64,000 nt of DNA, from assembly GCA_964510095.1 (NCBI GenBank), contig CAZEAE010000001.1, positions 1 to 64,000 on the forward strand, in the 5' to 3' direction. The notes beneath the pieces are model-generated. The model was not told the DNA's origin, made no database searches, and was given only the letters and a program-made list of their open reading frames with translations. Origin of the DNA: an uncultured Elusimicrobia bacterium. Its GTDB lineage: Bacteria; Elusimicrobiota; Elusimicrobia; UBA1565; UBA9628. Positions 32,314 to 64,000 of the stretch are shown here, piece by piece; positions within the stretch are counted from its first letter, which is position 1; every line of letters starts with the position of its first letter. The translations under genes and the position numbers were made by a program.

Positions 32314-32314
32314 G

Positions 32315-38739: not shown

Positions 38740-38741
38740 GG

Positions 38742-39239
38742 TCAGCGGAAGTTCTTGAACTGCAGATCGACCCCGAAGCTGCCCTGGCGCAAGAAAGCCA
38801 TGGCGGCCTGAAGTTCGTCCTTGGATTTGCTCGACACCCGCAGCTGATCGCCCTGGATGGAAGCGTTCACCTTCATCTTCTGCGCCTTGAAGGCCGCCTG
38901 CATCTCCTTGGCCTTATCCGTGGGGATGCCCGCGTTGATCGCCACCTCGGCGCGAGAGGTCTGCCCCAAGGCCGAGAGCGTGTCTCCCTTCTTGAAGTTC
39001 TTCAGCGGCAAGCCGCGCTTGGCCATGCGCGTCATCAGCATGTCGAAGACGGCGTCTATCTTCATCTCGTCCTCGGCGCGGATGACGAGCTTCTTGTCCT
39101 TCGCGTTGAGCTCGATGTCGGCGACGGAACCCTTGAAGTCGTAGCGATTCGAGATCTCCTTGAGCGCCACCTGGACCGACTCGGTGACCAGGTTCATGTC
39201 CACTTCGCTGACGACGTCGAACGAGAAATCGGAAGCCAT
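38742..39239 (-). CDS. yajQ: YajQ family nucleotide/c-di-GMP-binding protein (UPF0234)
   Basis: MASDFSFDVVSEVDMNLVTESVQVALKEISNRYDFKGS is the typical YajQ N-terminus; 165 aa. Confidence 0.8.
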   Translation of the reverse strand: MASDFSFDVVSEVDMNLVTESVQVALKEISNRYDFKGSVADIELNAKDKKLVIRAEDEMKIDAVFDMLMTRMAKRGLPLKNFKKGDTLSALGQTSRAEVAINAGIPTDKAKEMQAAFKAQKMKVNASIQGDQLRVSSKSKDELQAAMAFLRQGSFGVDLQFKNFR

Positions 39240-39249
39240 GGTTTTCCTC

Positions 39250-47562: not shown

Positions 47563-47609
47563 CTGAAAAGTGGAACAAAATGAGGGGTTCAATCGTATAT
47601 AGATTAGGT

Positions 47610-48436: not shown

Positions 48437-51400
48437 TTAGTGGATGACGCCGATCTTGCGGATGACGGTGCTGCTGCCGCCGGGGGACTTGACCTTGATG
48501 CGGGCGATGTAGCCGCCCTTGGAGACGAACATGCCCGCGCCGTTCTTGCCGTCCCAGAGCACGAAGTTGGGGCCGGAGCGGCCGCCTTCACCGCCGGGGG
48601 TGATCGAGATGGTCTTGACGATGTAGCCCATCAGGTCATAGATGGTGATCGTCACGTCGGAGTCGGCGCCCAAGGTATAGGTGATCGTGGTCTTGCCGGC
48701 CGGGCCGCCTTTGCGCGTGTCGAAGGGGTTGGGGTAGTTGCTGACGCCGGCCACGATGACGGAGTTGACGCCCGTGTTGACGCTCGTGGCCAGCGGCGAC
48801 CAGGGAGAGAAGACGCCGGCGGCGCTCAGGGCGCGCACGCGATAGGAGAAGTACTGGCCGGGCGGCCGCGGGCCCTCGCCCGGGAACGCGGGGTCGCCGA
48901 CGCCGTAAGTGGCCTGCTTGCCGTTGACCATCCCCAGCGTGCGCCAGATGACCTGCGCCGAGAGGTCCTTGGCCTCTCCGCCGCGCTCCTGGACCTCATA
49001 GGCGGCGACCCCGGAGTTCGCCTGGAGCGACGCCGCCCAACGCAGGCCGTAGACGGGCTTGCCCTGCTCCAGCGGCTGCGCGGCGCCAGGGACCGAGGGC
49101 GCCGTCGTATCGGGACGGAACATAAGGACCGGCTTGGCGGCCGAGGCGGCGGCGCCGGCAGGCACGAAGCGCGCGAAGATGATGGCGGCGGAATCCGAGA
49201 CCGGCTCGCCGGTCAAATGGGTGATGGCCACCGAGCCATGCAGCCCGCGTCCGTTGCCGGGCGCCGGGTCGCCATCCTGCGCCACGGTGCGCAAGGTGGT
49301 CTTATCGACCTTCTCGACCCGGATGATCTCGCTGCCGACGTAGACGATGCCGGGTAGATTGAGCTTGTTGGCGTCATCGACGATGAGCATCGTCGCATCG
49401 GGGGTCAAGGACACCGTCAGCCGGATCACGTTGGGCACGGGCAGGCTCAGGTTCGGGATCTTGGCGGTCGTGACCGGAGCGCCGGCGGCCAGCGCCCCGA
49501 AGCTCTGGGCGCTCAGCCCCGCGGCGGAGATCAGCGTCACGCTCGACCAGCTGTTGCTATAGGAAGATTGGCTGTCGTAGAACGCGCCGACTGAAACCTC
49601 GTAATAACCGGCCGTCGAGATCACGGGGAGAGAAGCGCTCAATTGACCGCTCTTGCCGCTCCAGGCCGAGGGCACGAAGCCCTGGGAGGGCATCTCGGTG
49701 CCCTTGGCGGGATTGCCCTGATCGGTGAGGTCGTTGCCTAGGAGTATTCGGAAGCCGCCGAAGCCGTTGTCCATGATCATGTCCACGATGCCGTCCGCGT
49801 TGAGGTCCATGTCGAGGACCCCGGTGCCGGTCAGGTCGCGGGAAGGATTGCCGTCGCCGGCCAAGGACACCTGGGTCGCCCGCGTGCTCTCGCCGATCTT
49901 GAAATTGTCGGGGATGCCGTCGCCGTTGATATCGATGAGCGGGCCCTGAGTGATGCAGTTGGCCGTCCAGCTCGAGCCGTCGATGCAGATCCACTTGCTC
50001 TGGTCCGGGATCGGGTTGTTGGCGGCGTCGCGGCAGATGTTCTTCCTCGGGTTGCTGACCGCGGCGCCGGCGCAGCCGGACGGCCTCACCTTGGCGAAGG
50101 CAGGGAACCCGACCGCGATGCCCGGTACGCCGGCCTGCGCCCGAGTCATGATGACCGGAGAAGCTATCTGCTGAGAGCTGATCGAGACCTCGGGGACGCC
50201 CACCAGCTCGATGGTCACCAAGCCGGAGGCCAGCGGCGGACGCTTGGAGGAGTTGGCGGCGGCCGTCAGCGGCGCGCCGTTAGGGCCGATCAAATCCGCG
50301 AACGCCCCGAGCAGGACGCCGATCTTATGCCCCAATGTCGACTGGCTGGCCGCGTCCGTCGAACCGATCACCGGCATGTCGGCGGAGACCAGCAAGGTGA
50401 CGGGAGCGACGCCGACCATCAGATAAGGATTGGCCTGCTCCGTGAGGTTGACGACCAGCGAGCCTCCGGCGAAAGCGCCGGTGCCCAGAAGGACGTCGGT
50501 GTTCGGGGTATCGGTGCTGGGCGTGACGACCCCGTCGCCCTTGTCGAGCCAGATGCTGATGCGGCCCAGGTCCCCGTCGCCCAAGCCGGTGGCGTCGACC
50601 AAGCCGGTGGTCGTGCTGATGATCGTGCCCTGCTGGGTGAGGCGCATGCGCGAGATCAGGACGGTGCTGAGGTTGGTCTGCAGGTCGATCTTGAGCAGCG
50701 GCACGTTGCGCTGGCCTTGCGCCGCGCCCACGGGCGCGATATTGGCGCCGGAGACCGACAGGTCGACGACCGGGGCCCCCGGCGCGACGCGGAAGACCGC
50801 CATCGCGCGCGCCGCCGAGGGATTGCCGCTGATGGGGACGTAGCGCGCGAAGAAGATGGCCGCCGAGTCGGAGACGGGCTCGCCTGCCATATGCACGATC
50901 GGCGCCGAGCCGCGCAGCCCGCGGCCGGTGCCCGGAGGCGGGTCCAGCTCCTGGCCCACGACCCGCAGCAGCGTGCTGCTGAGGCGCTCGGCGCGCAGCA
51001 CCTCGCTGCCGACGTAGATGATGCCCGGCAGGTTCAGCTTGGAGGCGTCATCGACGAAGAACGTCGTGGCGTCGGGGGTCAGAGCCGTGGCCAATCTCGT
51101 GATGTTGGGCACCGGCAGGTCCAGGCCGGTCACCCGGGCGGCCGTCATCGGCGAGCCCGCGGACAAGGAAGAGAACGCTTCGGCCGTCAGCCCGGTGATA
51201 TCGGGAGCCGTGACCGAGGACCAGTTGATGCTGTAGGTCAAAGGCGCGTCGTAGAAGGCGCCGACGGCGACCTCGAAATGGCCGGAGACCGCGACGGCCG
51301 GCAGCAGCATGGCCAACTGGCCGCTCTTGTCCGTCATCGCCGAAGGCGAGAAGCCCTGGTCGGGGACGGGGGTGGCCTTGGCCGCGTTGCCCTGGTCGGT

Positions 51401-54400
51401 GACGTCGTTGCCGAGCATGATCTGGAGGCCGCCGAAGCCGTTGCTGAACACCATGTCGACGATGCCGTCGCCGTTCATATCCATGTCGTAGACGCCCGTG
51501 TTGGTCATATCCCGAGACGGGCTGCCGTCTCCGACCAGGGTGACGCGGGTCGCCATCGTGCTGCCCAGGATGGAGAAGTTGTCGGGGACGCCGTCGCCGT
51601 TGACGTCGATGAGCGGGGGCTTCGTGGGACAGAAGGCCGACCAGGCCCGACCGTCGGCGCAGAGCCACTTGCTGGCGTCGGCCTTCGGGTTGTTGTTGCT
51701 GTCGCGGCAGATGTTGTTGCGCGGATTGCCCGCCGCCCGGCCGTTGTTGCAGTTGACCGCGTCCACCTGCGCGTAGGCCGGGTAGCCCACGGTGACCGAC
51801 GACACATTGAGGCCGGCCCGCGTCAAGATGATCGGGATGCCGGAGGAGCTGATGGAGACCGCCGGCAGGGTCAAAGGCGCGATGCTCACCAGCCGGGATT
51901 CGAACGGCGGGCGGATGACCGGGTCGGGAGCGGCGGCCACCGGCGCGCCGTCGGAACCCAGGAGGTCGGTGAACGCGACCAGCTTGAGCCCCGCCGTGTG
52001 GTCCAGCGTCGACTGCGGGACCTCGTCGAAGAACCCGATATCGGCCGTCACGTAGACCAGCGAGGTCGCCGTCGAGACCCGGAGGTAGGGGATGCCGTTC
52101 TGGGCCAGGCTGACGACGGCCACGCCGTCCGAGAAAGCTCCCCCCGCAGACCATGTGACCGAGCCCAAGAGGACGTCGGTCGTCGGCGTGAAGACCTTGT
52201 CGCCGTTGTCCAGCCAGGCGCTGACCTTGGAGAAGTCCCCGTCGCCGACCTTCGTCGAGACGCCGACGTCCATCGTGCCCAGCTGAGCGAAGCGGATCTT
52301 GGAGACGTTGACGAAGTCGGAGTTCACCTTCATCGTCATCTGCAGGATGGGCACGTTCTGCGCGCCTTGGCCGGCGCCGGCCGGCGCGATCGTGAACCCC
52401 GCCACCGCCAGGTTGATCGGATTGATGGCGATGTTGGTGCCGACGAACGGATACGACGTCGTGCCGGTGCCCAGGGTATTGGACCGCGTCACCCCGGTGC
52501 GCACCGAAGGCTGGACGTTGTCGCCGCGCGGCATGACGATCCAGGAAGGGTCTCGGATGACCAGCGAGACCAGGTCGTTCTGGATGGCGGCGTCTCCGAT
52601 GTCGTAGGCCACGAAGAAGGCTTGCGCCGACGGGCCTATGAACTGGTCGTTCTTCAGCGTGATGAGCGACTGGACGTTGGCGTCGTTGGTCTGGTCGTAG
52701 ACGTCGACCTTCTTGACGTTGCGGCCGACCGGGATATCGAGGGTGGGCGTCGGGCTCGTGCCCAAGCGGTCGCCGCGCGAGGTGATCCACAGGCAGGGCA
52801 GGCCGGTGTTGCGGCTGAGCGTGGGCGTGGCCGGGTCCGAGCAGCCGCCGGCCGCGAACGTCATCAACTCGGCTCCATGCACGAAGACGCGCCCGCCGAT
52901 CGCACTGCCGTCGGTGTCGGTCGGGAAGCCCGCCGTGGAGACGACGACCATGCCGAAGGGCGGAGCCGAGGTGATCGACACCGCCACGGCCAGCGACGTG
53001 TTGACCTGGGAGATGTCCACATCCTCGAGCCCGAGGACGTCGTCCTGGTTGATGTCCTTGAAGATCCGGATGAATTTGACGTCCGTGTTGCGGCCCAGGG
53101 GCTTGGCCGGGTCCTGCGAGCCGCCGCCGCGCTCCAGGCGCAAGGCGCGCCAAGGGGCCAGCGCGATGTTGGTGGCCATATTGAAGCGCAGGAACGGCAC
53201 GTTGGTCTGGGCCTGGGTGACGCCGGGGATCTCGGAGGCCACGTTGTTGACGCCGAGGGTCACTTGCGAGATGACCTTCTTGACGGTCACCAGGGGATTG
53301 CTCTGGAAGGTCGGCGTCGTGAAGATCACGACGTTGGGCACCTGGATCGTGAAATAGGCCGGCCCCGCGATCTGCACGCCGGTCTGGGCGTTCTCGGCCG
53401 CGAACTCGGAGATGTCGTAGGTGACGAAATAATCGGCCGGCACCGTGCTGACCAGGATCGGCTGGCGCAGGGTGATGTTGACCGTCCCCGAGCTATAGGT
53501 CTCGTTGCCGAAGGAGAGCAGGTTGGGCGTCAAGCCGGCGCCGGTCCGGGTGGAATCCACGGCGTCGAACACGCCGTTGGAGTTGGCGTCCCGCCAAACC
53601 TTCATGAGCTTGACGTCGCTGTCGAGGCCGTTGGCGCCCATGCGGTCCAGGCGGAGCTTCTGCACGATGGCCGAGTTGCGGTCCGTGCTCAGCCGCAGGC
53701 GCACCATCGGGACGTTGATATCGTTCTGCAGGGCGCTGTTGCCCGAGATCTGGTCGAACTCGGCCCTGATCGTGTTGAGCGTCGGCGTCACCACGTAGGT
53801 GGGCGCCGCCACCGGCGCCTGGAAGATGGTCACGTGACCGGCGTTGGCCGGGGTCAAGAGGAACTTGGCCCCGTCGGTGACGGCCGCGCCGAAGACCTCG
53901 TTGGGAGGCGTCAACGTGATATGAGAGAACTTGGCCGACGGCGAGACGTCGAGGGCCACGTAGTAGGTCTTGGTCGAGGAGGTGATCAGCGCATACCCCG
54001 GCCGGCCCAGCGTCGGGTCGTCGATGGGGATGGTCGTGCGGCCGTCGGTGTCCGGCGGCACGCCGAAGCGGTTGGAGCCCATGACGTAGTCGCTCAGGTT
54101 GAAGCCCGTATCCGGGTCGCGGTGGAAGACCCCGTCGGGCGTGGCCGACTTGTAGATCGTCACGACATCGACGTCGGAGTCCTCGCCGTTGAGGCCGGCG
54201 GGCAGGGTGCGGTTGAGCTTGAGTCCGCTCAGCTGGATCTGGAAGTTGCCCGACCACAGCTCCAGCTTCATCATGGCCAGGTTCCGCTCGCCTTGGGCGA
54301 TCTGCGGGCCGATGACCGTGCCGGTGGAGTGCGCCGTCGGGATGCTGTTGAGCTCTCCGCGCCGGACGTTCTGCAGCAAGGGCAGGGTCGGATGGAAGCC

Positions 54401-57400
54401 CGTATAGCTGATGATCTCGCCGTCGATCATGGCGTAGGTCGTGGCGCCGACGAGCGGGATGGGCAGGCCCTGGGTCGAGCTCAGCACCCAGAAAGAGTCC
54501 ACGGCGCCGACGGGCTGGCTCGACACGGAGGCGCCGGCCGGGTCGAGCAGGGGCGCCGGGAAGGTCCCGCTGGAGTTGCTGAACATCGGCGTCGACCTGA
54601 CGTACAGTATCTGGGGCGAGGCGATGATGGCCCGGAGCTTGGAGACGAAGGGCACCGGCGAGGCCGGGTTGAAGACGTTGGGCAGGGTCAGCGAGTTCTG
54701 CAGCGGGTCGTCGGTGACCGAGCTCAAGGTCGGCAAGGAGGTGTTGAGGATCTGCACGCCCACCGTGCGCGGCTTGGCCGTCACTGGGTCGACCGGCAGG
54801 GCCGTCGGCGACATATGATAGGCGACGAAGTAGCGCTGGGGCTGGGAGGCGCCCGCGGCCGTGACGATCTTGCGCTTGGGATAGAGGTTGACCTGCGCCA
54901 CCAAAGGCAGGCCGGAGTAGTTGCCGAAGGTGCCCGTGCCGACCAGGACGTCGCCGGAGGCCGGGTTGAAGATGGCATCGCCGCTGGCGTCGTACCACAG
55001 CGAGACCATGTCGACGTCTCCGGCCATGCTGCCCTGCGCCGCCGCGGTGCCGGTGGCGTAGAAGAGCATCCAGCGCCAGCCGGAGTCGGCGATGTCGGTG
55101 TCCAGCGTGAAGACGCCGACCGCCACGGTGCTGAGCTGCTGGACGAACGGCCCCAGCGAGCCGTCGATGGTGTCGGAGGAGATCACGCGCACCAGGTCCT
55201 TGACCTCGGCCACGTTCGAGATGAACGACACCGTGCGCCCGCCGTTGACGGCGGGGATGCCGATGTTGAGCGTCGACATGGACTTAGGGGCCTTGACCTG
55301 CAGATACGTGGTGTTGGCGATGATCATGCCGAGGTTGGCCGCCGGCGACACCGAGGCGAAGGCGTCGATATCATAGGCGATGAAGTAGTCCTGCTTCTCC
55401 GTCGTGAGGATCTGGCCGCCGCCGCCGATGAGGCCGACGACCGGGATGCGGGCCGAGCCGGAGAGCACCGTGCCGGTGGCGAAATCTAGGCCGATGGTGC
55501 CCTCCTGGGCCCGGTAGCAGTCGTTGTAGGTGTTGGAGGCCAGATCGACCGAGTAGCACCTGACGACCTCCTTCTTCGTCTCGTCGGCCGTGTCGTCGCC
55601 CAGCACCAGCCGCTGCTGCGGGTCGCCGGAGAACGGGTTGTCGGCGGGATAAAGGGAGAGGATGCTGTTGACCGCGATGCTGACCGGCGTCAGGCTGCTG
55701 ACCCCCACCGAGCTCAAGGGGTCGCGCAGCGTGGTCTGAGGGAAGTTATGGATCGTCGCGTTGAACGGGCTGACCTGCGTGTCGCTGGAGACGTTGAGCA
55801 GGCCGTTGCCGTCCATATCCCGCCAGATGCGGATGTTCGTGACGTCGGCGGCCTTGTTGTTCAAGGCGAAGAGCGGGTCGTAGAGCCCCGTGCCGCTGTT
55901 GAGCGTCGAGGCCATCCAGCGGTCGAGCTTGACGCCCGTCCACTCGGCGGAGCCGGTGTCCACCTTCATCGTCAGCTTGGCCACGGGCTTGTTCTTATCG
56001 TTCTGCGAGATCTTCGAGGGGATGGCGTCGATGGGATCGAGGTTGGCGTCCAAACCCTGGCGGTTGACGTCGGAGAGCTTGACCAGGTCGGGCGTGGCGA
56101 TGATGATCGTCTGCGTGGACGCCACCGGGGAGAACGAGTTCACCGTGCCGTTGCCGAGCAAGGGGATGACGTCCGACTGCGTCACGATCGCGCCGTGGGT
56201 CTGCCCGGATTCCGCGGCCGCGTCGAAATCGTAGGCGACGAAATAGGTGCGGGTCGAAGCGCCGATCGTGCCGTTGGAGCCGCTCGGGTTGGCGATCGCC
56301 AGCGTCACGGTGCGCTCCTCGCCCTCCGGAAAGGACGCCGAGGCCACCAGCTTGTCGATGGAGAACTCGAAGACGCCGTTGCCCGGAGGGCTCTGGTTGG
56401 CCTGCGTGTCCTGGAAGAGCTTGACCAGCTTGATGTGCCGGTCGAGGCCGCTGCCGGTATGCGTGATGCGCAGGCGGCTCAAGACGGCCGTGAACACGTC
56501 GGTCCACATGTCGAACTTCATGATGCCGACGTTGGCCTCGCCTTGGTTGATATAGGAATAGGTCGACAAGGACAAGGCCGGCGGCTGCCAGAAAGCGTTG
56601 ATGTCGGTGCCCTTGACGTTGATGGCGGCGGGCTCGCGCTGCACCGACGAGGTCGCCGTGCGCACGCCGAAGTTGTTGAGGCCGACGGCCACCGCGCTGC
56701 CGGTCGACAGCGTGATGTAGGAGGGGTTGGTCAGCTCCAGGCCGAAGCTGGCCGGCAGCTCGCCGACGGCGTAGCCGCTGGAGGAGACGCGCACGGTGAT
56801 GAAGAAGAAGGACGGCAGCTGGCCCAGGGTGCTCTCCGTAGGCTTGGCTTGCTCGATGCGCTCCTGGCCGAAGAAGGGGTTGCCGAAGAACCAGGCGCCG
56901 TCGGCCGCGCTGTAGGCGCCGCTGGCGAGGAACACGTCGACGGCGGCGTCGAAGCGTCCGTTGGGCGTGGTCGGGTTGTCCCGGTAGATGGCCACTTCCG
57001 TGATATGGCTGTTGTTGAGGTTGCCCTCCACCCGGCTGTTGATGCGCATCTGCGACAACTGGGCGGGCAAGGCGGGGCTGGGCGCGCCCGGCGTCACCTG
57101 CATCGCCATGCGCAGCATGGGGATGGGGTCGGGCGAGGACGCCACGTTGCCGTCGCCCTGGTTAAGCACCTTCTTGGTCACGCCGAAGGCCACCTTGACC
57201 GGCGGGATCGGGCCGTCGGGCGGCGGCGTGGACTCCGGCGAGAAATCGCTCGGGGTCACGACGACGCCGGCCAGGTTGACGTCGCCGTCGGAGCGCTTGG
57301 ACGGGTCGGCGGGCAGCCCGATCCGGCCGACGTCGTTGGTAAAGCCGGTCATGGCCATGTTGCTGTAATCGGTGACCCCGATCTTGAGGACCTCCTGGAC

Positions 57401-60400
57401 CAGATCGACCAAGCGCATGTTGTTGAACGACCCCTGCTCGGCCGGCGTGAAGATATGATAGGTGGTGTTGGCGATGGTGTCGCGCAGGCTGACGGTGGCC
57501 GTCGAGCCCGAGCTTTGGAAGTTCACCTGGCTGGTATAGTACTGGCCGTTGACGGGGTCGCCCTTGGCGATGTTGCCGAAAAGGTCGCGCGCCGTGATGC
57601 CGACCTGATCGGCGCCGATCAGCCGGGTCAGCGTGCCGGGCTGCGTGACCTTCAGCGGGTTGCCTTCCGAGAACTGATGGTGGATCGTGAGATAGGTCGC
57701 CTTGGCGGAGGTGATCGTCTCATCCTGGAAGATCGTCGTGAAGACGAAAGCGCTGTTGAGCTGGGCCCGAGCGGAGATCGTCACGGTGCCGGCGATGGTG
57801 TCCCAGAAGTAGAACGGCGCCTGGCTCAGGCCGGAGCCGCCGGGGATGTCGATGTCGATCTGCGTGCCCGGGGTGATGTTGTTCCAAGCCGCCGAGGGCG
57901 CGGTGCCCACGATGACGGCCGTCGGGTCGATGCCGGCGTAGGTGGAGTTGCGAGACGAGTTGTAGCGGATGATGTAGGTCTCCGTCGAGGTGGTCGTGTT
58001 GCCGAACTGGTCCATCAAGCGCGCGGCGACGACGGTGCCGGTCGGCACGCCGAGGTTGTATTCGATGGTCGTGCCGGCGATCAGGCGGCGCGACGGCGTG
58101 CCCCAGCCGATCTGGGCGGGAGGGCCGGCCGTGACCGAGTAGGAGGAAACGCCCGGGTCCCAGACGGGATAGGTCACGCCGGTGACGGTCAGCTGGAACG
58201 TCGGGTTCGACAGGAGGGTGTCGATCATGTAGAAGCTGGTGGCCGACTGGCCGACGGAGATATAGGCGTTGACGGGAGCGGTCATGAAGTTGCCGGTGGC
58301 AGGCGTGGAGAAGCGGACGTTGCCGGAGGAGTTGGTGTCCAGCCGGAAGGCCACCACGCCCTCGCCCAAGTCCTGACCGGGGCGCAGGGGCGAGGGGTTG
58401 CCGTAGAAATCCCGCGTCTCCAGCGAGAAGGCCTGGGAGGTAGCGCCCGCCAGCAAGGTTTGGCCGGAGCCGGTCGAGAAGGCGATGCGGTCGATGACGT
58501 CGGCGATCACGGTCACCGACTGGCTGGCGGGGAAAAGGCCGGGCACGGAGATGTTGATGACGGGCTTGGTGCCGCCTCCGGCGGCGTATTGCGTGGAAGC
58601 GGTGGTGTCCATGTAGTAGAAGGTCGCTTGATAGGCGTCCAGCGGCACGGTCAGGGTCTTCGTCGAGTAGGTGAAGAACGGGGCACCGAAGCGCGAGCCG
58701 GGAGAGACGTAGGGGGCGGAAGAGAAGCCCACGAAGTCGTTGAGCAGCGTGCTCTGGCGCGTGATGGTGGTGAGCGTGACGACGTAGGTCTGGGTAGCCA
58801 CCGTGGGGTTGTTGAACTGGTCCTGGAGCTGCGCCCGGAAGACGGCCGGCGCGTTGGCGAAATCGACGATCTTGCCCGCCACCTCGGAGTTCTGCGCGTT
58901 GGCGAAGTTGACCTTGTTGGTGATGTTGGGGTCCATGCGAAGGTCATGGGAGGCCAGCAGGGTGCCGCCGATCCAGCCCTGGATCGTCCAGCGTCCGGGG
59001 CGGCCGCTCTCCGCCGTATTGGACGACGGCGAAACGCCTGAATAGGAGCTGAAGCGATCATGGTAGCGGAACGTCGTCTCCGCGCCGGTGAAGCCGTCGA
59101 AGATCGTGTAGCCGGTGATGAAGTTGTTGTTGCCGGAGTCGCGGAAGCCGTAGTCGCCGGTGTTGCCGAAGACCCCCAGCGCGTAGCCTCGGGCGGTATG
59201 GACGGCCGTCTGCGCGACCTTAAGGAGCACCGAGGTGTCGCCTTGGCGCGTGATGTTGTCAAAATCGTCATGGCGCTCGATGACGTAGGCGCCGCCGGCG
59301 GCGGCCACCTCGTTGATGCCGGCGGTGGCCGCCGTAGGCGTCGAGATGAAGAGCAGGCGGGTCGGCAGGCCGCCCACCGTCACGAAGGCGCCGGAGATGT
59401 TCTTCGCCGCGTTGATGTAGCCCTGCAGGGCGGTCGGGTCGGTGGGAGCCGAGATCGTGCCGATCCAGACCCGCGCCGTGTCGCTGCTGGCCTTGGTGCC
59501 GACGAAGTAGGAGAGCAGCGTGCCCAAGCCGACCTTGCCGGCGGCGTCGGTGACGACCTGGGTGGAGCCGCCGACGAGCAGCCAGCCGGCGCCCGTGTCC
59601 CAGGCCAACTGGCCCGGTGCGCCGGTGACGGCGACGCGCTGGACCTGGACGGCCTGCGAGTTGGTGATCGGGTTGTCGAAGGCATCCGTCAGCTGGCCGG
59701 AGAATTGGATCATGCCGGGGTTGTTGGGGACCAGGGAGCCGGCCGAGATCAGCTGGTCGGCGCTGGGCGTGACCTTCACGGAATCGGGCGCGGCCGGGGA
59801 GATGACGACGAAGGGCTTGACCGCGGGGGCCACGCTGCTGGTGATGCCCTGCAAGACCGAGTCGTAAGCCTCGATCCAGCGGCTGCCCACCTTCTTGAGC
59901 TTGACCATGTTGATCAGGTTCTTGACGCCTTGGTCCGTCACGGACGAGAAGGCCACGCTCGTCGGCGTGAACTCCGGGTCCTGGTTGCCGCCGAACATCT
60001 CGGCCAGGAACTGCACCGTGCCCCGGTAGGCGTTGGGGCCCGTCGACAGGATGTTGTCGAACTGGTCGAGCGCGCTCAAGTCGACCGTGATGAAGGAGCC
60101 GGCCGTCGTGCTGGCGGCGACGTTATAGAGGCGGAAGTGATGGAGCGGACCGGGCAGGACCCAGAGCGGGGCCGAGGTCCCCGAGCGGTAATCGACCACC
60201 GGGGCGAGCCCCGTCGAAGCGACGATGGTGTAGGTCGAGATGGCCGCTCGCGGCGTGACCGAGAAGGAGCGCTTGCCCAGGAACAAGCTCTGGCTGGCCG
60301 GAGGCGTCGCGAAAGGGTCGCCGGGCAGCGTGATGTAGACCGCCGGCATCACGGCCGGAGGGTTGGTGTCCTGCAGCGGATTGCCCACGCCGATGTCGGT

Positions 60401-63400
60401 GCAGACGTTGTAGTAGGAGTCGACCAGGTTGACCCCCGCCAGGAACGACGTCTGCGGCGAGGTCATCGCGAAGGGCGTGGGGATGCCGGTCTTGCCGAAG
60501 CCGGGCTCGGACGTCTCCCCCGGCAGAAGCACCTGCAGAGCCACCGCGGAGGAAGCATAGACCTTGAACTGGGGGCTCGTCGCGGCCTGCGCGTGGCAGG
60601 TGTTGGTGGTCGGCGGGCTGTCCTGGCAGATCGGGTCGTTGACGAAAAGGCTGGCCGAGATGACCGCCGACGTCGTCTTGCGCAGGAGCTTGAAGTCGGT
60701 GATCGCCAGGGTCCCGGCCGCGCTCAGCGCGACGTCGGTGAAGCTCGGCGCGTAGGGATCGTTGCTCGTCACGTTGATGCCCGGGCAGCCCGGCGAGCAG
60801 GTCGGCGCGGCCAAGTTCATGAAGCGGTCCACGAAGTTGACCGTCACCGTGAAGGTCGAGCCCGCCGTGCCCGTCGAGATCGAACCGGTCAGGCCCCCGT
60901 AAGGCGGGCCGCTCAGGTAGTTGCCCGAGCCCGGTTGGGCGGTCTGTCCGGGCAGGAGCATCTGCAGGCCCACCGGCTCGGCGGCGGCCACCGTGAAAGT
61001 CGATGAAAGGATGTCGTCGAACAAGCCGGTGGCGTTGAAGTCCAAAGCCTGCAGGAAGTGGTCCGTCGCCGCCCGCCGCAGCACCGCCGTGAAGGCCGGC
61101 GTGAAGCCCAACGATGTGTCGATAGCCACCGTCGTGATCGACGCGGCGAAGGCGTCGGTGAACGCGACGAGCTTGACCTCGGCCACGCACTTCGGGTTGG
61201 CGGGGCAGTCCTTGACCAGGTTGAAGAAGTCGTCGACGACGCCCACGCGCAGGTCGGGCACGATGCCCGAGCCCACCTGGCTGCCCAGCGCCGTGCCGGC
61301 CTTCTGCGAGACGGCGACCCCGGACTTGCCGGTGGGCGAGCCCTGGCTGAAATCCTCGCCGGGGAGCTTGACCAGCAAGCGCGTCGGCAGGCCGGCGGCG
61401 ATGGTGATCACGCTGCTGGTGTCCTTGGTCACGGCGTAGACCCAAGGGGAGACGATGCCGGGATTGACCGTCTCGGCGAAGAACTTCGACGTGCCGGCCC
61501 GCTTCATGTAGACGGTGTAGGTCGCAGACGTCGTGACGACCTGCGTCGTGGGCACGATGACGGCGAAGGGGTCGTCGGAGGTCAGGCGGATCTCCTGGCT
61601 CGCCCCGGGCGTGAGGTTGAAGTAGGAGTCGGCGATGTCGACGATGACGGGGAAGGAGAACACGGGCCCGGCCTGGGTATTGAAAGCCGCGCCGGTGCGG
61701 CCGGTGGTCGTGACGACGGACCCGGGGCTGCGGGTCTCCGTCGGCAGCAGCACGCGCAGATGGTTCGGGCTGCCGGGCACCAGCGGGAAGACCTTGGCCG
61801 GAGACGCCGTCAGGTTGGGCGCCGAGCCGTCGAGGTCGGTGGCCGTCAGCGTGGGGAACCCGGCGGAGATCAGGTTGACGTTCTTGATGGTGGCGCTGCC
61901 GTTGGCCATGGCGAAGCTGCCGACCAAGCCCACCGGCGGCCCGAGCAAGGTCGCGTCGCTGGAAACGACGCGGATGGCGGTCTGGCTCACGGTGGGCACC
62001 CAGTTGTACTGGCTGTCGACGGCGTAGGCGCCGGCGTCGAACAAAACGCCCGCGGTCTGCGTCGAGGCGTTGCCGCTGACGCCCTGGGGGGCCGTCGTCT
62101 TGCCGGCCACCAGGGTTTCCCCCGGCATCACGGTCAAGAGCTTGACCGGGGCGCCCGGCACGACCGAGATGCTCGCCGTGGTCTGCGAAGCCAGCGGGGG
62201 CCCGATGATATCGCTGTCGGTGACGGTCACCGTCAGGTTCGCCGTCGCCGCGCTGACGATGAAGCCTCCGAAGTCCCTAGTGCCGGCCGACAAGATGGCC
62301 GGCGCCGGCATCGTCGCGTAGATGTCGTTGCTCGTCAGCGCCACGTTGCGTCCGTCGTTCGCCAGGTTGTTATAAAGGTCGACGGCGTTGACCGTGACGG
62401 TGTACGGGGTGCCCGCCACCAGCGGGCCCGGGGTCGCCGCGGTCTTGCCGGTGGGGCTGCCCTCCAAGGCCGTCTCGGGAGGCACCAGCAGCTGCAGGCC
62501 GATGGCGCTGTTCGGGCCGACGGCGATGCCTGCGACCGTGTCCGAATAGAAGGTCGTGCCCGCCAAGGCGTTGACGACCTTGACCTGGAAGGAGCCGTTG
62601 CGCGTGACCGGGATGACGCTGAAGTTCGTCGTGCCGGCGACCAAGGCCTTCTGATACAGAGCCGGCGCCAGGCCCCGCAGCTGGATGTTCGTGTCGTTGG
62701 GGAAGCGCATCTCGATGGCCGCCGTATAAGAGGAGACCGGCAGGACGGTCTGGGGCAGGAACGGCGTCGTGCCTTTGACGACGTTGAAGTAGCGGTCGAC
62801 CAGGTTGACCGTGATCTGCGTCGTCACGCCTGCCGTCAGCGCCGACGGCAGGTCCGCGGCGCGGCCGCCCGTGGTGGGGTCCTGGTCGTAGGGCTGGGCG
62901 CCGGGGGAGGCCTTCTGCCCGGCGGCCAGCACCTGGAGCTTCTCGGGCCGCGACCACCAGACCGTCACCGGGTTGGGGGTGATATAGGTCGAGGTCAAAG
63001 CCGGCAGGCTGGCGCTCTGCACGATGACGTTGTGCGTCGACGCCGTCACCGGGACGAAGAAGAAGCGAGTCGTGCCGCCGACCAGGTTGAGCGCGGCGGG
63101 GTTGACGTCGTTGGGGTCCGAGAAGACGTTGCCCGTGACGAGCATGCCGGCGGAGGTGTCGGTGTTATAGTACTGGTCGACGCCGACGACGGTGACCGTC
63201 GTGATGGACCCGGCCTGGAAATCCATCGCGGCCGGCGTCGTCTTGCCCGCGGGCGCGGCGGTCTTGCCCTGCACGCGCGTCTCACCGGGGAACAGGGCCA
63301 GCAGACGGTCGGCCGGCTGGCCGGTCACGGTGATCACGGAGGACGGGTTGGATTCGTTCAAGGCATAGTTGTCGACCTGGGCCTTGCGCGCCCCGTCGAC

Positions 63401-63994
63401 GCTGGCGGAGACCAGCGTGCAGGTGACCGTGGTGGAGCCCGTGAAGACCACCGGGTTGACCGGGGCGCAGGCCGCGTTGTTGGGATCGGTGTCCGAGACC
63501 GTCACGCTGGCCGCCGACGACAGCGAGAGGTTCCAATAGTGGTCGACGACCTGGACGAGATAGGTGACCGGGCTGCCGGCCAGCTTCGAGCGCGGCGTGC
63601 CCGTGCGGCCCTCGAAGCCCGAAGGCGCCATCTTGCCCGGCGCGGGCTGCTCGCCGGCCGGGTCGTAGTCGGCGATCAGCTGGATCTTCTCGGCGCCGGC
63701 GGGCTGGACCGTGACGTTGAGCGTGCCGGCGGGCGACTGCGTGACGTTCTCCTCGACGCGCAGCGTGCGCGCGCCGGCCTTGCGCAGGCGGATCGGGAAG
63801 GTCTTGATGCCGTTGTTGCCGCCGGCGCCGACCGTGAAGGAGTACTGCTGAGGCAGGCCGGTCAGGTCGTCGGGGACGCCGTCGTTGTCCATGACCTCCG
63901 GGCCGCCCGGCACGCCGTCGACGTAGAAATTGACGGTCTTGTCATAGGCGGTGGCGCGCGCGCCGCCGCCGTTGGCGCCGTCCTTGGCTTCCAC
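48437..63994 (-). CDS. Giant surface/adhesin-like protein (>5185 aa, N-terminus beyond window end) with C-terminal T9SS-type (Por/FlgD-Ig-like) sorting domain
   Basis: Continuous minus-strand ORF to the window edge; C-terminal ~90 aa NYPNPFD..TTITYTL..DSDVTITIYDLMGYIVKTI...GPNFVLWDGKNGAGMFVSKGGYIARIKV matches the Por secretion/FlgD Ig-like C-terminal domain; FN3-like domain just before it; Ca-binding DxDxDG loops (DINGDGIPDN, DMDLNADGIVDM); Thr/Ser/Val/Gly-rich beta-rich composition. Confidence 0.85.
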   Translation of the reverse strand: MEAKDGANGGGARATAYDKTVNFYVDGVPGGPEVMDNDGVPDDLTGLPQQYSFTVGAGGNNGIKTFPIRLRKAGARTLRVEENVTQSPAGTLNVTVQPAGAEKIQLIADYDPAGEQPAPGKMAPSGFEGRTGTPRSKLAGSPVTYLVQVVDHYWNLSLSSAASVTVSDTDPNNAACAPVNPVVFTGSTTVTCTLVSASVDGARKAQVDNYALNESNPSSVITVTGQPADRLLALFPGETRVQGKTAAPAGKTTPAAMDFQAGSITTVTVVGVDQYYNTDTSAGMLVTGNVFSDPNDVNPAALNLVGGTTRFFFVPVTASTHNVIVQSASLPALTSTYITPNPVTVWWSRPEKLQVLAAGQKASPGAQPYDQDPTTGGRAADLPSALTAGVTTQITVNLVDRYFNVVKGTTPFLPQTVLPVSSYTAAIEMRFPNDTNIQLRGLAPALYQKALVAGTTNFSVIPVTRNGSFQVKVVNALAGTTFYSDTVAGIAVGPNSAIGLQLLVPPETALEGSPTGKTAATPGPLVAGTPYTVTVNAVDLYNNLANDGRNVALTSNDIYATMPAPAILSAGTRDFGGFIVSAATANLTVTVTDSDIIGPPLASQTTASISVVPGAPVKLLTVMPGETLVAGKTTAPQGVSGNASTQTAGVLFDAGAYAVDSQYNWVPTVSQTAIRVVSSDATLLGPPVGLVGSFAMANGSATIKNVNLISAGFPTLTATDLDGSAPNLTASPAKVFPLVPGSPNHLRVLLPTETRSPGSVVTTTGRTGAAFNTQAGPVFSFPVIVDIADSYFNLTPGASQEIRLTSDDPFAVIVPTTQVVTTSATYTVYMKRAGTSKFFAETVNPGIVSPWVYAVTKDTSSVITIAAGLPTRLLVKLPGEDFSQGSPTGKSGVAVSQKAGTALGSQVGSGIVPDLRVGVVDDFFNLVKDCPANPKCVAEVKLVAFTDAFAASITTVAIDTSLGFTPAFTAVLRRAATDHFLQALDFNATGLFDDILSSTFTVAAAEPVGLQMLLPGQTAQPGSGNYLSGPPYGGLTGSISTGTAGSTFTVTVNFVDRFMNLAAPTCSPGCPGINVTSNDPYAPSFTDVALSAAGTLAITDFKLLRKTTSAVISASLFVNDPICQDSPPTTNTCHAQAATSPQFKVYASSAVALQVLLPGETSEPGFGKTGIPTPFAMTSPQTSFLAGVNLVDSYYNVCTDIGVGNPLQDTNPPAVMPAVYITLPGDPFATPPASQSLFLGKRSFSVTPRAAISTYTIVASTGLAPVVDYRSGTSAPLWVLPGPLHHFRLYNVAASTTAGSFITVDLSALDQFDNILSTGPNAYRGTVQFLAEMFGGNQDPEFTPTSVAFSSVTDQGVKNLINMVKLKKVGSRWIEAYDSVLQGITSSVAPAVKPFVVISPAAPDSVKVTPSADQLISAGSLVPNNPGMIQFSGQLTDAFDNPITNSQAVQVQRVAVTGAPGQLAWDTGAGWLLVGGSTQVVTDAAGKVGLGTLLSYFVGTKASSDTARVWIGTISAPTDPTALQGYINAAKNISGAFVTVGGLPTRLLFISTPTAATAGINEVAAAGGAYVIERHDDFDNITRQGDTSVLLKVAQTAVHTARGYALGVFGNTGDYGFRDSGNNNFITGYTIFDGFTGAETTFRYHDRFSSYSGVSPSSNTAESGRPGRWTIQGWIGGTLLASHDLRMDPNITNKVNFANAQNSEVAGKIVDFANAPAVFRAQLQDQFNNPTVATQTYVVTLTTITRQSTLLNDFVGFSSAPYVSPGSRFGAPFFTYSTKTLTVPLDAYQATFYYMDTTASTQYAAGGGTKPVINISVPGLFPASQSVTVIADVIDRIAFSTGSGQTLLAGATSQAFSLETRDFYGNPSPLRPGQDLGEGVVAFRLDTNSSGNVRFSTPATGNFMTAPVNAYISVGQSATSFYMIDTLLSNPTFQLTVTGVTYPVWDPGVSSYSVTAGPPAQIGWGTPSRRLIAGTTIEYNLGVPTGTVVAARLMDQFGNTTTSTETYIIRYNSSRNSTYAGIDPTAVIVGTAPSAAWNNITPGTQIDIDIPGGSGLSQAPFYFWDTIAGTVTISARAQLNSAFVFTTIFQDETITSAKATYLTIHHQFSEGNPLKVTQPGTLTRLIGADQVGITARDLFGNIAKGDPVNGQYYTSQVNFQSSGSTATVSLRDTIANTTYHIFTPAEQGSFNNMRLVDLVQEVLKIGVTDYSNMAMTGFTNDVGRIGLPADPSKRSDGDVNLAGVVVTPSDFSPESTPPPDGPIPPVKVAFGVTKKVLNQGDGNVASSPDPIPMLRMAMQVTPGAPSPALPAQLSQMRINSRVEGNLNNSHITEVAIYRDNPTTPNGRFDAAVDVFLASGAYSAADGAWFFGNPFFGQERIEQAKPTESTLGQLPSFFFITVRVSSSGYAVGELPASFGLELTNPSYITLSTGSAVAVGLNNFGVRTATSSVQREPAAINVKGTDINAFWQPPALSLSTYSYINQGEANVGIMKFDMWTDVFTAVLSRLRITHTGSGLDRHIKLVKLFQDTQANQSPPGNGVFEFSIDKLVASASFPEGEERTVTLAIANPSGSNGTIGASTRTYFVAYDFDAAAESGQTHGAIVTQSDVIPLLGNGTVNSFSPVASTQTIIIATPDLVKLSDVNRQGLDANLDPIDAIPSKISQNDKNKPVAKLTMKVDTGSAEWTGVKLDRWMASTLNSGTGLYDPLFALNNKAADVTNIRIWRDMDGNGLLNVSSDTQVSPFNATIHNFPQTTLRDPLSSVGVSSLTPVSIAVNSILSLYPADNPFSGDPQQRLVLGDDTADETKKEVVRCYSVDLASNTYNDCYRAQEGTIGLDFATGTVLSGSARIPVVGLIGGGGQILTTEKQDYFIAYDIDAFASVSPAANLGMIIANTTYLQVKAPKSMSTLNIGIPAVNGGRTVSFISNVAEVKDLVRVISSDTIDGSLGPFVQQLSTVAVGVFTLDTDIADSGWRWMLFYATGTAAAQGSMAGDVDMVSLWYDASGDAIFNPASGDVLVGTGTFGNYSGLPLVAQVNLYPKRKIVTAAGASQPQRYFVAYHMSPTALPVDPVTAKPRTVGVQILNTSLPTLSSVTDDPLQNSLTLPNVFNPASPVPFVSKLRAIIASPQILYVRSTPMFSNSSGTFPAPLLDPAGASVSSQPVGAVDSFWVLSSTQGLPIPLVGATTYAMIDGEIISYTGFHPTLPLLQNVRRGELNSIPTAHSTGTVIGPQIAQGERNLAMMKLELWSGNFQIQLSGLKLNRTLPAGLNGEDSDVDVVTIYKSATPDGVFHRDPDTGFNLSDYVMGSNRFGVPPDTDGRTTIPIDDPTLGRPGYALITSSTKTYYVALDVSPSAKFSHITLTPPNEVFGAAVTDGAKFLLTPANAGHVTIFQAPVAAPTYVVTPTLNTIRAEFDQISGNSALQNDINVPMVRLRLSTDRNSAIVQKLRLDRMGANGLDSDVKLMKVWRDANSNGVFDAVDSTRTGAGLTPNLLSFGNETYSSGTVNITLRQPILVSTVPADYFVTYDISEFAAENAQTGVQIAGPAYFTIQVPNVVIFTTPTFQSNPLVTVKKVISQVTLGVNNVASEIPGVTQAQTNVPFLRFNMATNIALAPWRALRLERGGGSQDPAKPLGRNTDVKFIRIFKDINQDDVLGLEDVDISQVNTSLAVAVSITSAPPFGMVVVSTAGFPTDTDGSAIGGRVFVHGAELMTFAAGGCSDPATPTLSRNTGLPCLWITSRGDRLGTSPTPTLDIPVGRNVKKVDVYDQTNDANVQSLITLKNDQFIGPSAQAFFVAYDIGDAAIQNDLVSLVIRDPSWIVMPRGDNVQPSVRTGVTRSNTLGTGTTSYPFVGTNIAINPINLAVAGFTIAPAGAGQGAQNVPILQMTMKVNSDFVNVSKIRFAQLGTMDVGVSTKVGDGDFSKVSAWLDNGDKVFTPTTDVLLGSVTWSAGGAFSDGVAVVSLAQNGIPYLRVSTATSLVYVTADIGFFDEVPQSTLDHTAGLKLVAFTDLLGSDGAPVAAAPDPVIRPPFESRLVSIAPLTLPAVSISSSGIPIILTRAGLNVSSVTVGYPAYAQVDAVNCNNGRAAGNPRNNICRDSNNNPKADASKWLCADGRAWSAFCPTKPPLIDVNGDGVPDNFSILGSTMATRVTLVGDGSPSRDMTNTGVYDMDMNGDGIVDMVFSNGFGGLQIMLGNDVTDQGNAAKATPVPDQGFSPSAMTDKSGQLAMLLPAVAVSGHFEVAVGAFYDAPLTYSINWSSVTAPDITGLTAEAFSSLSAGSPMTAARVTGLDLPVPNITRLATALTPDATTFFVDDASKLNLPGIIYVGSEVLRAERLSSTLLRVVGQELDPPPGTGRGLRGSAPIVHMAGEPVSDSAAIFFARYVPISGNPSAARAMAVFRVAPGAPVVDLSVSGANIAPVGAAQGQRNVPLLKIDLQTNLSTVLISRMRLTQQGTIISTTTGLVDATGLGDGDLGRISIWLDKGDGVVTPSTDTPNTDVLLGTGAFAGGSLVVNLTEQANPYLMVGVAPVTLLVSADMPVIGSTDAASQSTLGHKIGVLLGAFADLIGPNGAPLTAAANSSKRPPLASGLVTIELVGVPEVSISSQQIASPVIMTRAQAGVPGIAVGFPAFAKVRPSGCAGAAVSNPRKNICRDAANNPIPDQSKWICIDGSSWTANCITQGPLIDINGDGIPDNFKIGESTRATQVSLAGDGNPSRDLTGTGVLDMDLNADGIVDMIMDNGFGGFRILLGNDLTDQGNPAKGTEMPSQGFVPSAWSGKSGQLSASLPVISTAGYYEVSVGAFYDSQSSYSNSWSSVTLISAAGLSAQSFGALAAGAPVTTAKIPNLSLPVPNVIRLTVSLTPDATMLIVDDANKLNLPGIVYVGSEIIRVEKVDKTTLRTVAQDGDPAPGNGRGLHGSVAITHLTGEPVSDSAAIIFARFVPAGAAASAAKPVLMFRPDTTAPSVPGAAQPLEQGKPVYGLRWAASLQANSGVAAYEVQERGGEAKDLSAQVIWRTLGMVNGKQATYGVGDPAFPGEGPRPPGQYFSYRVRALSAAGVFSPWSPLATSVNTGVNSVIVAGVSNYPNPFDTRKGGPAGKTTITYTLGADSDVTITIYDLMGYIVKTISITPGGEGGRSGPNFVLWDGKNGAGMFVSKGGYIARIKVKSPGGSSTVIRKIGVIH
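49223..52571 (-). repeat. Intragenic tandem duplication: 2 x 1674 nt (2 x 558 aa, ~60-65% aa identity) within the giant gene
   Basis: Two successive units each ending ...GEPVSDSAAI(F/I)FAR(Y/F)VP and containing the same Cys6 region (V.C.....C....C...C..C) and DxDxDG loops; mirrored by near-duplicate spurious plus-strand ORFs 49347 and 51018 (offset 1671 nt). Boundaries are approximate (+/-100 nt). Confidence 0.8.
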
Positions 63995-64000
63995 GGTGAG

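Follow-up and report, generated by a model that had tools for sequence, protein, structure and literature searches.

The stretch of DNA analyzed here (the window, 64,000 nucleotides) corresponds, in reverse complement, to the final 64 kb of the ENA contig Hain_H51_02um_R1_2_length_257441 (ERZ1292641), from a Hainich groundwater Elusimicrobiota MAG. Its flanking proteins correspond to NCBI entries MEK78575xx (MEK7857574–MEK7857590 belong to this MAG), annotated as 'Elusimicrobiota bacterium', in agreement with an earlier reading of the window (the original prediction) that had placed the genome outside Bacteroidota. The principal feature is the 3′ part of a giant gene, whose stop codon occupies positions 48437–48439 on the (−) strand and whose frame continues without interruption to position 64000. 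The ORF was tabulated from the first GTG at 63994, and the two further codons 5′ of this GTG are likewise open. On the source contig the full gene, at 170,915–209,005, is called at 12,696 aa, so that ~7,509 residues (22.5 kb) of the protein lie past position 64000; the window ORF is the C-terminal 41% of the protein, and the start of the gene is ~22.5 kb outside the window. Extension of the contig thus bore out the prediction of a giant gene truncated by the window, with its N-terminus beyond position 64000. GC content by codon position (GC3 0.94 versus GC1 0.58 and GC2 0.50) identifies the ORF as coding and not as a high-GC shadow ORF, and the gene is also called on independent contigs, confirming it as genuine.

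Table 1. Features of the giant gene and its downstream neighbors. Residue numbers refer to the part of the giant protein encoded in the window.
Feature	Coordinates	Strand	Remarks
Giant gene, C-terminal 5,187 codons plus stop	48437..64000	(−)	Open frame up to the window edge
About nine tandem ~128-aa β-rich repeats, aa 60–1220	60341..63823	(−)	Found by self-BLAST; without Pfam match
Conserved non-repetitive region with recurring D-x-F-G-N motifs, aa 1240–2279	57164..60283	(−)	Collinear with orthologues
Divergent series of ~200-aa modules, aa 2280–3799	52604..57163	(−)	Internal similarity 20–31%
~555-aa module, copy 1, aa 3862–4411	50768..52417	(−)	Four conserved Cys, two D-x-N-x-D-G-x-x-D loops
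~555-aa module, copy 2, aa 4412–4970	49091..50767	(−)	Tandem duplication of copy 1
FN3-fold domain, aa ~4980–5072	48785..49063	(−)	
C-terminal seven-strand β-sandwich, aa 5084–5187	48440..48751	(−)	T9SS-type-A-like, FlgD-Ig-like
IS200-like Y1 transposase between giant and HEAT genes	47580..48401	(+)	PF01797, 44.7 bits
HEAT-repeat protein, conserved downstream neighbor of the giant gene in the window's clade	46409..47491	(−)	
CHASE2 sensor–adenylate/guanylate cyclase–TPR protein, second conserved downstream neighbor in the clade	44253..46412	(−)	

The long β-rich repeats of the original prediction are present as the ~128-aa repeats, the ~200-aa modules and the duplicated ~555-aa module. The ~128-aa repeats share the motif LLxPGE...G...AG..f.vtV.avD.yyN and align to one another by self-BLAST at offsets that are multiples of 127–132 aa, with 26–32% identity. 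The two copies of the ~555-aa module are 50–60% identical to each other, and we interpret the pair as a tandem duplication because the module is single copy in 40 of 43 orthologues. Copy 1 shows a weak match to FG-GAP_3 (E 0.04), while copy 2 has only five database homologues, at 46–57% identity, the two with an organism name being Elusimicrobia/Elusimicrobiales. The 'Cys6 module' that had been described contains four conserved cysteines per ~555-aa module, not six. The predicted DxDxDG-type loops are found as five D-x-[DN]-x-[DN]-G-x-x-D sequences in the window part of the protein; they are putative Ca2+ sites, and those in the ~555-aa module are invariant across orthologues.

Pfam and NCBIfam searches with the whole window protein and with ten pieces of ~519 aa, at lenient E-values, returned the FlgD_ig tail only. 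Profiles of three passenger segments built from 33–35 orthologues each gave nothing credible against PDB sequences; among these, the profiles for aa 1240–1759 (33 orthologues, alignment A7) and aa 2280–2739 (35 orthologues) gave no match, and a Pfam scan of the 35 orthologues of aa 2280–2739 found nothing recurrent. The passenger thus contains no enzymatic or recognizable domain in Pfam and PDB profile searches.

The C-terminal tail is a compact seven-strand Ig-like sandwich positioned at the extreme C-terminus, as is required of a T9SS type A C-terminal domain (CTD). It begins with N-x-P-N-P and reads NYPNPFDTRKGG ... YDLMGY ... WDGKNGAG.FVSKGGY ... IRKIGVIH-COOH. In structure, FN3 folds aside, it most resembles the CTDs of PorU and PorZ, which are not cleaved, and a PDB profile search with the tail matched FlgD Ig domains and the PorU tail. 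The Por-secretion/FlgD-Ig domain of the original prediction is therefore present, but no T9SS or FlgD model scores it above its cut-off: PF13860 (FlgD_ig) gives 23.4–26.3 bits against a gathering cut-off of 27, TIGR04183 gives 18.6 bits against 23, and PF18962 does not match the giant protein even at E up to 5. Apart from TIGR04183, the NCBIfam matches are only to the C-terminal tails of PorU and T9SS-dependent-protease models, and the type B CTD models (CHU_C PF13585 / TIGR04131) find no match on the giant protein. The predicted FN3 domain that precedes the tail was likewise recovered as a fold, though PF00041 (fn3) has no match on the giant protein at E up to 5. In precomputed annotation, most homologous tails are assigned to PF13860. 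An AlphaFold model of the last 828 aa, built from a 7-sequence alignment, reached a pLDDT of 43 and was unusable for fold search.

An alignment restricted to the tail contains 34 invariant columns, among them the terminal R-K-x-G-x-I-H. The lysine of RKIGVIH and the glycine of YDLxG are invariant in 12 of 12 sequences and nearly so in 124. Two functional CTD motifs, a lysine in the last strand and a glycine in the β3–β4 loop, have been described previously (PMC11285876), and the last-strand lysine and the YDxxG-loop glycine of the present tail are candidate equivalents of these. Other proteins contain 5–15 tandem copies of the same domain type internally, and by its fold alone the tail is thus a generic Ig-like module.

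Unrelated secreted proteins also end in this tail. These include proteins of ~168 aa composed of a signal peptide and the tail only, and P0395, a paralogous 1,659-aa protein (PF18962 16.7 versus 27 and type B CTD 17.8 versus 27, both sub-threshold) that also has a signal peptide; the signal peptides on both point to Sec dependence of these tail-bearing proteins. By a strict pattern-based scan, the exact tail type is found once or twice per genome and not on dozens of cargoes.

Searching with a tail profile gave 126 genomic places, of which the best 80 are almost all in Elusimicrobiota and represent both classes. The tail closes an ORF of >1,000 aa in 57 of these best 80 places, and most of the 57 ORFs fill the entire 10-kb flank (>3,400 aa) or reach the contig end. 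The orthologues align with the window protein as single collinear BLASTP HSPs of ~3,200 aa at 30–59% identity, and one has been called at 12,492 aa. Collinear orthology extends to at least 57 species of Elusimicrobiota, with residues conserved across >50 species; the protein is a phylum-wide orthologue and not a generic repeat adhesin. Surveys of giant proteins report that Elusimicrobiota are enriched in uncharacterized proteins of 5,000–10,000 aa or more (West-Roberts et al., bioRxiv 10.1101/2023.11.21.568195; PMC11573180), and the very large proteins described from the PVC group in the first of these are among the closest known counterparts of the present protein. The available portions of the two surveys give size statistics and make no mention of the present family, its tail or its neighborhood.

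In the window's clade, the HEAT and CHASE2 cyclase genes follow the giant gene. The giant stop codon is 946 nt from the HEAT start in the window versus 13–129 nt in clade relatives, and the Y1 transposase found between them is an insertion specific to the window's genome among the loci compared. The HEAT protein is probably periplasmic, since the clade HEAT orthologues carry N-terminal signal peptides. That it might be a diverged FliG was considered and rejected (hhalign probability 0.2% versus the FliG-TPR protein described below). No T9SS genes were found within the 64-kb window, and SprA, PorU and PorKLMN were seen neither in the window nor among the annotated genes beside orthologues. The FGE-sulfatase protein at 13837–14757 was rejected as PorK/GldK: it scores 73.7 against a cut-off of 350, PvdO/EgtB fit better, and gldLMN neighbors are absent. 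In the literature searched, we found no report of a T9SS in Elusimicrobiota, and the T9SS-bearing phyla of a 2024 review are Bacteroidota and other FCB phyla, with Elusimicrobiota not among them.

A different set of genes adjoins the giant gene in relatives, where the order on its 3′ side is PorV-TPR, FliG-TPR, coiled coil, (FlbD), MotA, MotB and lipoprotein. By tblastn, PorV-TPR is present in 37 loci, FliG-TPR in 30 and MotA in 24. Gene order, strand and short spacers are maintained in 37 loci from two classes, between which the giant proteins are ~30% identical. The first downstream gene encodes a barrel fused to TPR that PGAP names 'PorV/PorQ family protein'. In orthologous loci it passes the PorV_fam model NF033709 (113 and 103.6 bits versus a cut-off of 90) and falls far below both equivalog models (PorV 29.9 versus 250; PorQ 59 versus 220); on sequence, it is a PorV_fam member at the family level only. 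The barrel also matches the spirochaetal UPF0164 family and so does not in itself prove a T9SS.

The FliG-TPR protein contains the middle and C-terminal domains of FliG (FliG_MC; match to PDB 1lkv, E 1e-54), combined with two TM segments, a periplasmic loop and TPR repeats, and the MotB of the cluster has plug and OmpA-like domains. All flagellar-type matches in the cluster are below equivalog cut-offs, and it contains no genes for an export apparatus, a rod, a hook or a filament. For the periplasmic loop, YscJ_FliF_C matches in four of six proteins (E 0.001–0.11) are sub-threshold, and a PDB profile search gave no confirmation; a FliF-like ring-building motif was accordingly not accepted. The cluster does not adjoin the giant gene in the window's clade (13 loci), where the HEAT and CHASE2 cyclase genes replace it, nor in five other loci. 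A tblastn search for the cluster within the window gave 0 matches, and no PorV-TPR homologue among the 120 matches listed and 10 looked up was assignable to the window's genome. Of the type IX-like export originally proposed, support was found for the T9SS-like tail and, in 37 loci, for a PorV-like partner, but not for a canonical T9SS; besides the PorV/PorQ-family barrel, the partners in relatives are flagellar-type rotor and stator genes (FliG, FlbD and MotAB), not PorKLMN, SprA or PorU. A search of the literature for the combination of PorV, FliG and MotA found nothing relevant.

We consider it somewhat better than an even chance that the window encodes the C-terminal part of a surface protein that is exported through Sec, anchored by its tail to a barrel and, in most lineages, powered by a motor. 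The signal peptides on other tail-bearing proteins suggest that the giant protein would likewise be a Sec substrate. The FN3 domain and the β-sandwich tail with its IRKIGVIH end are predicted to act in the manner of the PorU and PorZ CTDs, which remain uncleaved, and to dock on the PorV/PorQ-family outer-membrane barrel, which would present and anchor the huge β-rich, probably Ca2+-stabilized passenger on the cell surface. Because the barrel gene is followed downstream by those for a membrane-embedded, rotor-like FliG-domain protein, FlbD and a MotA/MotB stator, a proton-driven motor of flagellar type probably powers export or movement of the fibre, the sole evidence for this coupling being gene adjacency. 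Such a motor would be functionally analogous to GldLM/PorLM, which drive the T9SS and the SprB adhesin, and would be built from different parts.

The tail shares with the PorU and PorZ CTDs of Porphyromonas gingivalis, which are bound to PorV/PorQ, the seven-strand Ig-like fold and the N-x-P-N-P start, with its conserved glycine and lysine as candidate equivalents of theirs, and a PorV/PorQ-family barrel gene adjoins the orthologues of the giant gene. It differs from T9SS type A in lying below the TIGR04183, PF18962 and PF13860 cut-offs and in belonging to a host outside the FCB group, and its terminal IRKIGVIH signature is phylum-specific; the fusion of the barrel to TPR is a further difference from the T9SS. 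The SprB adhesin of Flavobacterium johnsoniae is a 6,497-aa gliding protein with a type B CTD, encoded alongside the PorP-like outer-membrane barrel SprF, which anchors it, and driven by the GldLM proton motor. The present system would likewise combine a giant β-rich surface protein, a C-terminal sorting or anchoring domain, an outer-membrane barrel gene directly 3′ (in most relatives) and a predicted link to a proton-driven motor, but its CTD is type-A-like, its barrel PorV/Q-like, and FliG, FlbD and MotAB take the place of GldLM among its motor genes. To our knowledge, gliding has not been demonstrated in Elusimicrobiota. The cluster resembles the flagellar rotor and stator (FliF/FliG, MotA/MotB, FlbD) in having a true FliG middle and C-terminal domain followed by FlbD, MotA and MotB in orthologous loci, and differs in the FliG fusions described above and in its position beside the gene of a giant CTD protein.

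The giant protein might instead be a static fibre, S-layer-like coat or adhesin, with the tail as a structural or wall-binding module and the barrel and motor genes unrelated to it and adjacent by ancestry. We regard this as unlikely, if deserving of consideration: FlgD-Ig-like domains are also found as internal tandem repeats in other proteins, the giant gene has been kept without these neighbors in the window's clade and in a few others, and the passenger has no enzymatic or recognizable domain. However, a gene arrangement maintained across two classes while the giant protein itself has diverged to ~30% identity argues against adjacency by ancestry alone, a near-invariant extreme C-terminus is more in keeping with a recognition signal than with a spacer domain, and the same tail is carried by unrelated secreted proteins. 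An ordinary cargo of a canonical T9SS encoded elsewhere in the genome, with a SprA translocon, a PorK/L/M/N motor and ring, and a PorU sortase that cleaves the tail, is quite improbable. Neither the 64-kb window, where the FGE-sulfatase protein lacks gldLMN, nor the literature searched for Elusimicrobiota offers such a system, the conserved neighbors are FliG, FlbD and MotAB rather than PorLMN, the strict pattern-based scan found the exact tail type too rarely in each genome for a set of dozens of cargoes, and the closest counterparts of the tail are CTDs that are not cleaved. In its favor are the type A resemblance of the tail in sequence and fold and the PorV/PorQ-family gene beside orthologues.

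Size, β-rich repeats and putative Ca2+ loops are also typical of giant adhesins exported by type I (RTX/LapA-like) or type V (autotransporter/two-partner) systems, and β-sandwich repeats are shared with the RTX/LapA proteins. Export by either route is nonetheless very unlikely. The giant protein has neither a GGxGxD nonapeptide nor RTX repeats, lacks a T1SS signal and shows no RTX, autotransporter or TPS Pfam match; it ends in FN3 and an Ig-like sandwich rather than in a C-terminal β-barrel translocator, for whose families no match was found, and for thousands of residues its sequence is collinear and free of repeats. ABC, MFP and TolC genes, as for a T1SS, are absent from its surroundings, and T1SS substrates lack the Sec signal peptides seen on other same-tail proteins. 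A spurious long ORF or an assembly chimera has next to no probability: high-GC DNA does yield long antisense ORFs, several of which (100–1,720 aa) overlap the giant ORF, but the high GC3 is combined with typical GC1 and GC2, independent contigs carry the same gene, and conservation across the phylum refutes the idea.

The preferred reading, Sec export with barrel anchoring and a motor in most lineages, may be taken one step further, to an undescribed envelope-spanning machine in which a flagellum-derived rotor and stator are coupled via the PorV/PorQ-like TPR barrel to a CTD surface protein of ~12,500 aa and power its secretion or movement. The rotor would be the two-TM FliF/FliG-like protein, the stator FlbD-MotA-MotB, and the window ORF would provide the surface component. 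We offer this as a tentative proposal that is possible but on balance doubtful. If true, it could amount to a novel form of gliding or surface motility, and it would account, in a testable manner, for the orphan motAB, flbD and fliG of non-flagellated Elusimicrobiota, which have been reported as unexplained (bioRxiv 10.1101/2022.07.08.499144).

The >5,000 passenger residues, for which Pfam, NCBIfam and PDB sequences yield no detectable relative, constitute a large block of uncharted protein space. If the preferred reading is true, collinearity over ~12,500 aa across a phylum would be unusual among giant adhesins, and one of the largest conserved bacterial proteins gains a concrete hypothesis for its export and anchoring. 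The CTD/PorV logic of type IX secretion, either pared down or re-engineered, would then also operate outside the FCB superphylum.

The minus strand is open for 5,187 codons from the giant gene's stop codon at 48437-48439 to the window edge; the ORF listing gives GTG at 63994 as the start, and the two codons upstream of it are open too. GC content is 0.94 at third, 0.58 at first and 0.50 at second codon positions, a pattern that marks a genuine gene where genomic GC is 65%, and the overlapping antisense ORFs are its shadows. An exact sequence match to the neighbouring HEAT protein places the window on ENA contig Hain_H51_02um_R1_2_length_257441 (Hainich groundwater), whose last 64 kb it reproduces in reverse complement; on that contig the full gene is called as a single 12,696-aa product, so the window holds the C-terminal 41% and the gene starts about 22.5 kb past position 64000. 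The original prediction of a giant ORF running off the window is thereby confirmed. The entries for the flanking proteins (MEK78575xx) read 'MAG: ... [Elusimicrobiota bacterium]'.

Run against a single genome from each species, the tail profile gave 126 confirmed places, the best 80 of which are almost all in Elusimicrobiota, spanning Elusimicrobia and Endomicrobiia. At 57 of them an ORF of >1,000 aa ends in the tail, most taking up all of the 10-kb flank (>3,400 aa) or reaching a contig end; the gene call for one orthologue is 12,492 aa long. BLASTP aligned the window protein to the tail-ended ORFs in single, collinear stretches of ~3,200 aa that are 30-59% identical, results that by sequence comparison mark the giant protein as a phylum-wide orthologue rather than a lineage-specific repeat adhesin. 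Elusimicrobiota are described as enriched in proteins above 5,000-10,000 aa, left uncharacterised in the portions of the sources consulted (bioRxiv 10.1101/2023.11.21.568195; PMC11573180).

The window protein contains 9-10% each of A, T, G, V and S and 0.4% Cys, and self-comparison resolves the repeat map tabulated below. Each copy of the ~555-aa module carries two D-x-N-x-D-G-x-x-D loops and four conserved cysteines, not the six of the 'Cys6 module' originally proposed. The module varies from one to three copies by species (for example L026, L061 and L076, homologous loci): one copy in 40 of 43 orthologues, two in the window protein and two others, and three in one. Pfam and NCBIfam matched none of the >5,000 residues ahead of the last ~100, even with the sequence cut into 519-aa pieces and searched leniently; Pfam also found nothing in 35 orthologues of one passenger segment, and profiles of three passenger segments (33-35 orthologues) matched no solved structure by sequence.

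The model of the last 215 residues, built from a 124-sequence alignment, shows two β-sandwiches (pLDDT 89). The predicted FN3 domain ahead of the tail is recognised by its fold only, and the predicted T9SS-type C-terminal domain holds in kind, the tail being T9SS-type-A-like, yet it scores below threshold in every curated model searched. An exhaustive search returned 8,224 representatives (E up to 1e-3), with two notable kinds among them. Some proteins, up to 6,506 aa long, end in a single copy at 50-78% identity; others hold the domain 5-15 times in internal tandem, at about 30-35%. The fold by itself is therefore generic, and the specific feature is the terminal IRKIGVIH subfamily. Proteins such as P0257-P0270 (1,200-2,500 aa) carry 5-15 tandem internal FlgD-Ig-like domains ~30-35% identical to the tail, so the fold serves as a repeat unit too.

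The tail search returned two classes of protein, the ends of long FN3-plus-tail proteins and a widespread family of small tail-only proteins. The latter, ~165-172 aa in this search, pair a Sec signal peptide and a brief conserved 'DQVAMAYVPGNPLMQLPGM' stretch with the tail, and all terminate in RKIGVIH; in two genomes the gene lies in the conserved order HNH endonuclease, small gene, HisKA histidine kinase. The small protein is a tail-only 'cargo'. In P0395 (1,659 aa) a clear signal peptide precedes fn3 and the tail, and together these signal peptides indicate that proteins with this tail are Sec substrates.

Features of the window and of homologous loci (L-numbers, locus-local coordinates)
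Feature	Size	Position	Remark
Repeats, about nine	~128 aa	aa 60-1220	self-comparison
Stretch without repeats		end of repeats to about aa 2280	self-comparison
Divergent modules	~200 aa	to about aa 3800	self-comparison
Four-Cys, Ca-loop module, two tandem copies	~555 aa	aa 3862-4411, 4412-4970 (49091-52417)	50-60% identity between copies
IS200-like Y1 transposase	273 aa	47580-48401 (+)	between giant-gene stop and HEAT gene
Genes after transposase			HEAT-repeat protein, CHASE2-cyclase, DUF3307, histidine-utilisation genes
Histidine-utilisation set		30751-42386 (-)	HutH, urocanase, formiminotransferase-cyclodeaminase
About nine same-strand ORFs	274/229/526/485/273/210/289/209/316 aa	17219-26319 (+)	no Pfam/NCBIfam match
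Protein without family match	898 aa	11144-14757 (+)	slightly overlaps FGE-sulfatase-domain protein; coordinates span both
Cluster (i) PorV-TPR	~540 aa		PorV/PorQ-family model 113 and 103.6 bits (cut-off 90); C-terminal TPR
Cluster (ii) FliG-TPR	~650 aa		two TM segments, periplasmic loop, FliG middle and C-terminal domain, TPR
Cluster (iii)	590-880 aa		Pro-rich N-terminus, long coiled coil
Cluster (iv) FlbD
Cluster (v) MotA
Cluster (vi) MotB			plug and OmpA-like domains
Cluster (vii) lipoprotein	~235 aa
Cluster examples		L027/L085 10001-19056; L019 10435-18909; L024 10528-19214; L064 5646-14545
Small tail-only family	~146-172 aa	P0048: L004 10001-10507	also P0130, P0132 and about 80 others

The genes downstream in orthologous loci are very consistent, lying on the same strand as the giant gene with short spacers. 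PGAP names the ~540-aa barrel 'PorV/PorQ family protein'. The FliG middle and C-terminal domain of FliG-TPR is genuine (PDB 1lkv, E 1e-54), and its periplasmic loop gives recurrent FliF-like matches, all sub-threshold; the cluster contains no other flagellar genes. In 37 loci PorV-TPR comes next after the giant gene, HEAT and CHASE2 genes replace the cluster in 13 (the window's clade), five have neither set, and two have convergent motBA. In one sub-clade (L077 12568-17397, also L066, L067 and L069) the PorV-like barrel and the coiled-coil protein have between them, in place of FliG-TPR, a protein of ~1,600 aa that ends in TPR.

In related genomes compared, which lack the transposase, 13-129 nt separate the giant-gene stop from the HEAT gene, and clade orthologues of the HEAT-repeat protein have signal peptides. 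The histidine-utilisation region, where an amidohydrolase-family protein may be the imidazolonepropionase, is interleaved with MgtE, a YajQ-like DUF520 protein, a HAD hydrolase and an aldehyde dehydrogenase, and is ordinary housekeeping context. The FGE-sulfatase protein at 13837-14757 was considered as GldK and rejected, its best matches being PvdO and EgtB.

The best-supported reading is that the giant protein is a Sec-exported, barrel-anchored surface fibre. Its passenger would be β-rich and probably Ca2+-stabilised, and its C-terminal sandwich would dock onto the PorV/PorQ-family outer-membrane barrel and remain attached, as PorU and PorZ CTDs stay on PorV/PorQ. SprB held by SprF offers a parallel. 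The rotor- and stator-like genes conserved beside the orthologues suggest that a proton-driven motor energises the fibre's export or movement, which would be a functional analogue of GldLM built instead from flagellar-type parts. The same arrangement would extend to the clade of the window, whose loci lack the cluster next to the giant gene.

Several rivals bear on this reading. Were the protein canonical T9SS cargo, the T9SS-like tail and the PorV-like partner in relatives would fit, and to that extent the original interpretation is supported; no core T9SS genes were seen, however, and none lies within the 64-kb window. Nor did the literature searched yield a report of T9SS in Elusimicrobiota, and the associated motor is flagellar-type. 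A T1SS or T5SS adhesin would also be a large surface protein; the window protein has no RTX nonapeptides and ends in the T9SS-like tail. A static fibre would have the cluster beside it fortuitously; the consistent gene order, strand and short spacers of the orthologous loci count against this. An artefactual ORF, of the kind that high-GC DNA produces, has codon-position GC and the collinear orthologues against it.

For the barrel-anchored fibre, coupling to a motor in a new kind of surface machine is a tentative and rather doubtful proposal. The genes motAB, flbD and fliG, their role unclear, occur in most free-living non-flagellated Elusimicrobiota (bioRxiv 10.1101/2022.07.08.499144), and our literature search found no paper tying them to a PorV-like barrel or a giant protein. 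The cluster described here may be the home of these 'orphan' genes.
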